From: a virus
Taxonomy: Duplodnaviria; Heunggongvirae; Uroviricota; Caudoviricetes
Length of the DNA: 5,281 nucleotides
Direction: 5' to 3' (one strand)
IMG/VR virus record: IMGVR_UViG_2548876700_000007
Below, piece by piece: positions 4,234 to 4,275 of this stretch. Both the position numbers and the translations under genes were made by a program. The number at the start of each line of letters is the position of its first letter. Positions within the stretch are counted from its first letter, which is position 1. The notes under the pieces are model-generated. The model was not told where the DNA came from. It did no database searches and was given only the letters and a program-made list of their open reading frames with translations.

Positions 4234-4275
4234 GTAACATCATGTTGACTTCAATGGTAACTCTTGTTACCTTAA
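4234..4275. promoter_or_regulatory. OL/pL-like operator-promoter candidate
   Basis: Seen: inverted repeat GGTAAC-tctt-GTTACC (4256-4271), the same half-sites and spacing as the 3445-3459 site; GTAACAT at 4234-4240; -35-like TTGACT at 4245-4250. No convincing -10 identified by eye. Function is inference. Confidence 0.45.

Follow-up and report, generated by a model that had tools for sequence, protein, structure and literature searches.

The window analyzed here is the whole 5,281-nucleotide (nt) stretch of IMG/VR record IMGVR_UViG_2548876700_000007, which comes from a virus of the class Caudoviricetes. Its part from 3150 to 4720 is 100% identical to a prophage of E. coli O55:H7 (CB9615, RM12579 and others), and at least 80% of this part was present in 702 of 5426 complete E. 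coli genomes. The window is a Qin-like lambdoid prophage of E. coli O55:H7, and its gene map is that of a lambdoid immunity region in the orientation opposite to the lambda map (Table 1). In CB9615, where the prophage adjoins rspB, a Q-like antiterminator is followed at some distance by YdaT-like and Cro-like genes (both leftward), and then by a LexA-family repressor, DUF1391 and a convergent open reading frame (ORF); beyond the latter, the RefSeq annotation of this locus (L001) lists dicB, DUF1482, an exonuclease, xis and int. Because the map is reversed relative to lambda, the equivalent of the early-left promoter (pL) is expected just to the right of the repressor gene, reading rightward. 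A perfect palindrome lies at this position, and our analysis suggests that it is very probably OL1, the primary operator of the left operator region (OL) that would control pL of this prophage.

Table 1. Predicted features of the immunity region and of the beginning of the pL operon (aa, amino acids; OR, right operator region; pR, early-right promoter).
Feature	Position	Strand	Basis
cro-like gene, 71 aa, first gene of the rightward-type (pR) operon	3201..3416	-	Pfam P22_Cro, E=2.8e-16; RefSeq "Cro/CI family transcriptional regulator"
Predicted pR: -35 TTGACA (3472..3467), 18-nt spacer, TGT + -10 TACCCT (3448..3443)	3443..3472	-	Sequence
Putative operator OR1, GGTAAC-aata-GTTACA	3445..3460		One mismatch to the OL1 dyad
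Putative operator OR2, GTCAAC-cata-GTGACA, overlapping the pR -35	3468..3483		Repeat family D1; matrix score 9.8, fifth best
Putative operator OR3, AGTAAC-attg-ATTACA, abutting the cI ATG	3493..3508		Half-site matrix, repeat search
cI-like repressor gene, 224 aa	3508..4182	+	Pfam HTH_3, 1.8e-16; Peptidase_S24, 1.1e-17
Intrinsic terminator of the cI transcript	4186..4210	+	Hairpin followed by U-run
Putative OL2, weaker auxiliary operator TGTACC-tctt-GTAACA, just upstream of the -35	4224..4239		Repeat D6; matrix score 12.3, fourth best
Predicted pL -35 hexamer TTGACT	4245..4250	+	Sequence, conservation
Probable OL1, perfect dyad GGTAAC-tctt-GTTACC, filling the promoter spacer and overlapping the -10	4256..4271		Shuffles, conservation
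Predicted pL extended -10, TG(T) + TACCTT, 17-nt spacer	4265..4273	+	Sequence, conservation
Predicted 5' leader of the pL transcript, start about 4280	4280..4447	+	Conserved across heteroimmune prophages from about 4282
ydfA-like gene (DUF1391), 50 aa, first conserved gene of the pL (dicB-type) operon	4448..4600	+	Pfam DUF1391, 1.9e-30; RefSeq
Two conserved hairpins, then exact rrn-type boxA TGCTCTTTAACAA (boxA 4677-4689) in the predicted pL transcript	4627..4689	+	

The palindrome GGTAAC-TCTT-GTTACC was present exactly as described in the initial annotation, and its placement beyond the cI terminator was also correct: the hairpin at 4186-4210 is strong (-15.1 kcal/mol, z=-6.9, with 0 of 200 shuffles folding as well) and is followed by a U-run. 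It had also been described as a second copy of the OR palindrome with the same half-sites. The 6-4-6 layout with its spacer of 4 base pairs (bp) is indeed shared, but the half-sites are not identical, as OR1 differs at one base (11 of 12 half-site bases agree). No perfect copy of the OL1 dyad arose in 2000 dinucleotide-preserving shuffles of the window, and sites with no more than one mismatch numbered two, versus 0.005 expected from the same 2000 shuffles; the two lie on opposite sides of the cI-like gene, in its intergenic flanks. When a half-site matrix was combined with a repeat search, five sites stood out, with scores of 9.8-18.1 versus at most 7.7 elsewhere in the window, the matrix having been derived from the same five sites that it scores. 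OL1 ranked first and OL2 fourth, and the remaining three of the top five were OR1 to OR3. OL2, which lies on the other side of the -35 hexamer, was absent from the initial annotation. From centre to centre, adjacent OR sites are 23 and 25 bp apart and OL1 and OL2 32 bp; the operator consensus of this immunity type is kGTAAC-N4-GTTACm. We also considered a third OL operator and rejected it, as no further site rose above the matrix background; a lone GTTACC at 4320-4325 was likewise not accepted as an operator, since it falls in a leader that is common to heteroimmune phages.

The predicted pL follows the 3' end of the repressor gene and points out of the immunity region, toward the recombination and integration genes. 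Its hexamers are of the sigma-70 type at functional spacing (TTGACT-17-TACCTT, 8 of 12 consensus positions), with TACCTT at 4268-4273, a TG at 4265-4266 and a predicted transcription start near 4280. Two putative operators of the OR family, OL1 (perfect) and OL2 (imperfect), are situated at this promoter. The palindrome had been reported to overlap TTGACT; instead, this hexamer ends 5 bp before it, and the overlap is with the -10, which lies inside the right half-site of OL1. The predicted pL and pR have the same construction: an operator occupies the spacer behind TTGACx, and the right half-site of the strongest operator contains TGT-TACCyT. A global alignment of the two gave 34 identities (shuffle mean 25, maximum 33), and the predicted pL core is a paralogue of the pR/OR1 core. 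The -10 hexamer of pL is weak, matching the consensus at 3 of 6 positions, and a consensus scan did not list the promoter. Thus, the assignment of pL leans on the TG extension, on its position and on comparative and conservation data.

Conservation within the immunity type was analyzed with 80 viral contigs carrying a 95-100% identical repressor, together with two further loci, which yielded 58 distinct sequences of the region. None of the 12 columns of the OL1 half-sites was variable (pi=0), compared with 26 of 39 among the other intergenic columns of 4211-4281 (pi=0.154; Fisher p=3e-5). TTGACT was retained in 56 and TACCTT in 54 of the 58 variants, OR1 was identical in 56, and the cI terminator was nearly invariant (pi=0.003). 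The five bases that separate the -35 from OL1 (4251-4255) occurred as 13 alleles. As read from these alignments, the half-sites and hexamers are a phylogenetic footprint. We further observed that the sequence between operators and hexamers (4211-4281 and 3438-3466) is hypervariable, with a pi of 0.154 versus 0.026 at fourfold-degenerate sites of cI, i.e., it is more variable among the 58 variants than a neutral reference close by.

A search of viral contigs for exact copies of GGTAACNCTTGTTACC returned 120 stretches, 65 of which adjoin a repressor homologue, always in the identical orientation. The dyad is located 77 nt past the last aligned cI codon in 59 of these 65 contigs, 76 or 78 nt past it in three and 45 nt in two; in the remaining contig the distance is 346 nt and the cI copy is frameshifted. 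The other 55 stretches represent unrelated contexts, and the occurrence of the same 16-mer pattern in so many unrelated contigs of a huge database is what could be expected of a chance palindrome without function. This explanation is extremely unlikely, however, considering the near-fixed position beside the cI gene in the 65 contigs, the result of the window shuffles and the presence of invariant half-sites against a hypervariable background.

More distant relatives were informative as well. Two metagenome contigs (L245 and L224) encode a CI that is only 45% identical to that of the window but has the same recognition-helix stretch, SRVSVTKWENG. Their OR carries GGTAACaaaaGTTACC and CGTAACattgGTTAC, and an OR3-like CGTAACattgGTTACATG precedes the cI start in the 45%-identical relative. 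Following their own terminator, they have GGTAACtcttGTTACC, 7 nt, TTGACA, 5 nt and TGTAACtttaATTACC; the -10 is again TACCTT and lies inside the last half-site of TGTAACtttaATTACC. Their leader and the genes downstream are unrelated to those of the window. Judging from this comparison, the operator type follows the recognition helix, and the layout of two operators around the -35 is retained.

These contigs also bear on the possibility that the dyad acts in RNA, as a hairpin in cI read-through transcripts that would serve as a back-up terminator or stability element, its likeness to OR being incidental. The dyad can form a 6-bp hairpin (-7.6 kcal/mol, z=-3.7), but no U-run follows it and the strong terminator is situated 46 nt upstream. 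Moreover, the sequence of the half-sites, beyond their pairing, is conserved and matches OR1 to OR3, and in L245 the dyad over the -10 is imperfect and pairs poorly, whereas a perfect dyad occupies the other operator position. We regard a role in RNA as very unlikely.

A different possibility is that a genuine promoter is present here but responds mainly to the Cro-like protein or another factor, the CI-like repressor not being bound. Cro proteins of lambdoid phages use CI operators too, and the Cro of L245 is related to that of the window, so co-variation does not separate CI from Cro. On the other hand, the relative with a 45%-identical CI has retained both the operators and the exact recognition helix of CI, the homologous promoters of Qin and Rac are under repressor control, and, to our knowledge, CI binds the shared operators in every characterized lambdoid immunity region. 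Control without CI is therefore quite improbable.

We also compared 96 relative loci anchored on ydfA. In roughly 40 of them homology to the window starts at 4282-4285, a few bases past the predicted -10, and about 14 unrelated sequence types are found upstream of this point. Among 19 representative loci that were scored, 17 have a -35 of TTGACx or TTTACA, separated by 16-18 nt from a -10 whose end is 7-13 nt ahead of the shared leader. Type-specific repeats flank the -35 in most immunity types examined, and an operator at the OL2 position is also present in heteroimmune relatives and in L245. Where the repressor gene is directly upstream, the OL repeats of a type recur in its own cI-cro intergenic region; the repeat is TTAGGCATAGCCTA in RacR-type loci, GTAC-N-GTAC in HK022-type loci and TACCCATAGGTA in another heteroimmune type. 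This OL/OR comparison was confined to types in which no toxin-antitoxin pair is inserted beside the repressor. The predicted operators co-vary with repressor specificity in the heteroimmune relatives, that is, OL and OR operators switch together with the repressor. The common start of homology and the repeats shared by OL and OR within each type suggest that the immunity cassette ends at the pL transcript start. In several heteroimmune relatives (L043, L077, L028, L094, L085 and L054, at about 2360-2735), a pair of small ORFs of 95-115 aa was observed directly upstream of pL. We take this pair to be a RelE/ParE-type toxin-antitoxin module on the basis of its sequence, and as such it resembles the PaaR2-PaaA2-ParE2 module of the O157:H7 prophage CP-933P.

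It should be considered whether the dyad mainly anchors long-range OL-OR looping that tightens repression of pR and of the repressor-maintenance promoter (pRM), as lambda OL does, with no promoter of its own. The distance from OL1 to OR1 is 811 bp, the C-terminal domain of the repressor is homologous to the octamerization domain of lambda CI, and the weak -10 that escaped the consensus scan would fit such a role. However, the -35 is kept in nearly all variants (56 of 58), 17 of the 19 scored loci have the arrangement TTGACx-17-(-10) shortly ahead of the shared leader, and the positional homologue of the site, dicBp (the promoter of the dicB operon in the K-12 prophage Qin), functions as a promoter and is subject to repression. 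A site may also serve looping and promoter control at once, as those of lambda do. A role in looping only is unlikely.

Several observations weigh against assigning the site to OL1 of a repressor-controlled pL. In addition to the weak promoter hexamer and the match to only 8 of 12 consensus positions, OL2 is degenerate and less well conserved (4 of 12 half-site columns are variable, the commonest allele being TGTACCTTTTGCAACA), and recognizable operators number two at OL versus three at OR. The spacing of OL1 and OL2 is wider than that of the OR sites, so that cooperative binding is only assumed. Finally, the sequences used for the footprint share kinship, which makes the Fisher p-values approximate. 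Nevertheless, the promoter anatomy, the footprint, the joint switching of OL and OR, the relative with a 45%-identical CI and the dicBp precedent together agree with the initial proposal of a repressor-controlled pL/OL-type promoter, and this remains a prediction from sequence comparisons that we consider very likely to be correct.

The predicted repressor has the properties of LexA/lambda CI-type (peptidase S24) proteins, with an N-terminal helix-turn-helix, a C-terminal S24 domain, a Ser-Lys dyad and an Ala-Gly site. The closest solved relative of its N-terminal domain is P22 c2 (1adr, E=5.6e-12), and the whole protein aligns with lambda CI (3bdn, E=7e-15). QAG (Ala99-Gly100), GDSM (Ser137) and KK (183/184) are found opposite A111-G112, S149 and the K192 region of lambda CI. 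As the autocleavage residues of lambda CI are kept, the repressor should be RecA-cleavable. In the collection searched, phage genomes encoded repressors that were at most 43% identical, and the operator sequences yielded no paper in a full-text literature search; this E. coli prophage immunity type appears to be uncharacterized.

The RefSeq start of the repressor is ATG 3466 (238 aa), so that OR2 and OR3 would be part of the gene itself. In the 224-aa form that starts at ATG 3508, homology to P22 c2 and lambda CI sets in near residue 5-11, and the 14 extra RefSeq codons show non-synonymous changes among the variants. The true cI start is probably ATG 3508, which has no Shine-Dalgarno sequence; the pRM transcript may thus be leaderless, as in lambda.

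A model for this region can be proposed. Dimers of the CI-like repressor would bind kGTAAC half-sites spaced 10 bp apart, in the 6-4-6 geometry of P22 c2 operators. By analogy with lambda, P22 and Qin, they probably occupy OL1 and, cooperatively, OL2, thereby excluding RNA polymerase, and the same repressor would hold pR at OR1 and OR2. After DNA damage, RecA-stimulated autocleavage at Ala99-Gly100 would allow pL to fire from about 4280 and to transcribe the conserved leader, ydfA, and then dicB, the exonuclease gene, xis and int. At a later stage, the Cro-like protein probably acts through the same operators to turn pL down, and looping between OL and OR may occur in addition.

The leader (4282-4447, roughly 165 nt) shows 84-97% identity across prophages of about 14 immunity types, including Rac, and an "Actinobacillus phage" record (PP818812; L179, 2501-2594) matches it at 82%. 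These matches always begin at the predicted transcript start, and the first 25 nt are C-rich. We found neither an RNA structure nor a conserved ORF in 4282-4447 that would explain this conservation. The segment 4276-4369, to which the initial annotation had pointed as a possible site of conserved RNA structure, yielded none that was significant despite its high sequence conservation: the fold of 4276-4380 was no better than that of shuffles (z=0.06), and the consensus fold (-9 kcal/mol) has one compensatory pair, with central stem positions that vary without keeping the pairing.

The initial annotation had placed the palindrome before an ORF at 4370. A 76-aa frame from ATG 4370 does exist, but it was rejected as a conserved gene: in relatives it stops after 6, 7, 18 or 20 codons or else fuses to ydfA, via 1-nt indels (ACCCGG vs ACCCCGG), and the conserved gene is ydfA at 4448-4600. 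ATG 4370 itself is invariant, and GAGG is located 9 nt upstream of it. It may be that this frame is a translated upstream ORF rather than one encoding a conserved protein.

With regard to antitermination, the initial annotation noted that an N-like protein and an obvious leader element were lacking. This was borne out for both: no N-like gene occurs among the window ORFs or in the RefSeq annotation of L001 (the first pL gene is DUF1391), and the features of a lambda-type N/nut system, i.e., an N-like ORF, an Rfam family or a structured leader, were not found. An element like HK022 putL at the transcript start was also rejected, as neither sequence similarity nor the about 70-nt two-stem RNA typical of put sites was detected. 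The remark is nevertheless incomplete with regard to the transcript further on. An exact boxA (13 of 13 consensus positions), TGCTCTTTAACAA, which we take to be the rrn boxA sequence, occurs on the transcribed strand 400 nt downstream of pL, and neither the window nor the 19.6-kb locus L001 contains another match with two or fewer mismatches. The hairpins preceding it share homology with the ydfC-dicF spacer of K-12 Qin; their sequence is conserved, but with almost no covariation and a folding z of -1.45, so that the structure is only a predicted one. In 12 of 12 distinct loci with a boxA-like motif, a minus-strand (convergent) ORF starts 25-46 nt further on, and an equivalent ORF was found in none of the 42 loci without boxA. 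A comparison limited to N-terminal sequences divides the associated ORFs into at least two types that appear unrelated. The case for boxA is weakened by relatives with substitutions within the motif (GATCTTTAACAA, GTTCTTTAAAAA), and a literature search on boxA in prophage operons returned nothing specific.

It is possible, although we consider it doubtful, that boxA and the hairpins constitute an N-independent, Nus-factor antitermination signal that travels with convergent inserted genes (morons) in the pL operon. They could equally be a shared cassette end inherited together with the convergent ORF. If the former is true, boxA would guard the pL transcript from Rho across about 0.5 kb of untranslated antisense sequence toward dicB, exo, xis and int, and this prophage family would substitute a host-only mechanism for N/nut where needed.

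The convergent ORF of the window (4715-5206, minus strand) encodes 163 aa with Cys-x2-Cys pairs and matches phrog_1244 (unknown function; E=2.7e-56). It sits within the pL operon, with ydfA on one side and the dicF/dicB region on the other, and is probably a moron. The pL operon of this prophage is without ydfB and ydfC. A diverged DicF-like segment was observed upstream of dicB in CB9615 (L001, 11380-11450). It was missed by the Rfam DicF model at E<=1, although this model gives K-12 DicF 76.7 bits; at a permissive threshold, Rfam detected no family in the window and no DicF match in L001.

This analysis defines an immunity region, with its predicted operators, pL, pR and probable true cI start, of a type that is present in hundreds of E. 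coli genomes. Its value lies mostly in annotation, as the mechanism would be a textbook one and the arrangement is an ordinary lambda-style one. The repressor looks SOS-cleavable, unlike DicA of K-12 Qin, and the toxic dicB-type operon should therefore be DNA-damage-inducible in such prophages.

Similar arrangements are known from other lambdoid elements. In HK022 pL/OL, operators flank a TTTACA -35, and the same operator type occurs in two loci (L041 and L044) that carry the leader of the window. The pL transcript of HK022 opens with the antiterminator RNA putL (PMC9378689), at the position that the conserved leader has in the window family; however, this leader has no sequence similarity to putL and no significant two-stem structure. 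In the racR-ydaG/ydaF-kilR region of Rac, the same leader directly follows the repressor-specific block of operators and promoter (L007, L009 and L010), and lower RacR levels raise ydaF/ydaG about 40-fold and kilR more than 70-fold (PMC6765115). RacR differs in being an unrelated 158-aa repressor with TTAGGC-N-GCCTAA-type operators.

P22 c2 and the window repressor are related in their N-terminal domains, yet the helix (SNVAISQWER versus TRVSVTKWEN) and the half-site sequence are different. P22 operators consist of half-sites split by a 4-bp uncontacted centre. In lambda, as predicted for the window, pL is distal to cI and reads away from the immunity region, OR-family operators lie over it, the pL and pR cores are paralogous and the autocleavage residues of the repressor are the same. 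The differences are that the window has only two recognizable OL sites instead of OL1-OL3, that its 6-4-6 half-sites are P22 c2/434-like whereas lambda sites are 17 bp, and that it lacks rexAB between cI and pL as well as an N gene and nutL.

The counterpart by position is Qin, which we take to reside near rspB, like the O55:H7 prophage. In both, the promoter lies between the repressor gene and ydfA with dicB downstream, dicBp serving the ydfA-ydfB-ydfC-dicF-dicB operon, and K-12 Qin also has operators on both sides of its TTGACC -35 and over the -10. dicBp has been described as lambda-PL-like, with operators in the dicA-dicC and dicA-dicBp regions, and deletion of dicA raises its activity 22-fold (PMC10448788). 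The K-12 operators are TGTTAGCTATAGCATACA-type repeats in place of GGTAAC-N4-GTTACC, and the K-12 leader is short, whereas that of the window is 130 nt and is also found in Rac. DicA is a short protein of 135 aa without a cleavage site (PMC10448788), in contrast to the 224-aa repressor of the window with its S24 domain and Ala-Gly site, and neither a DicA-type short repressor nor the Qin operator sequence was found in the window. With an S24 repressor and different operators, the window system is best viewed as a heteroimmune relative of Qin rather than the same system, and, by its gene context, the palindrome is the positional homologue of dicBp in a prophage with a predicted SOS-type repressor.

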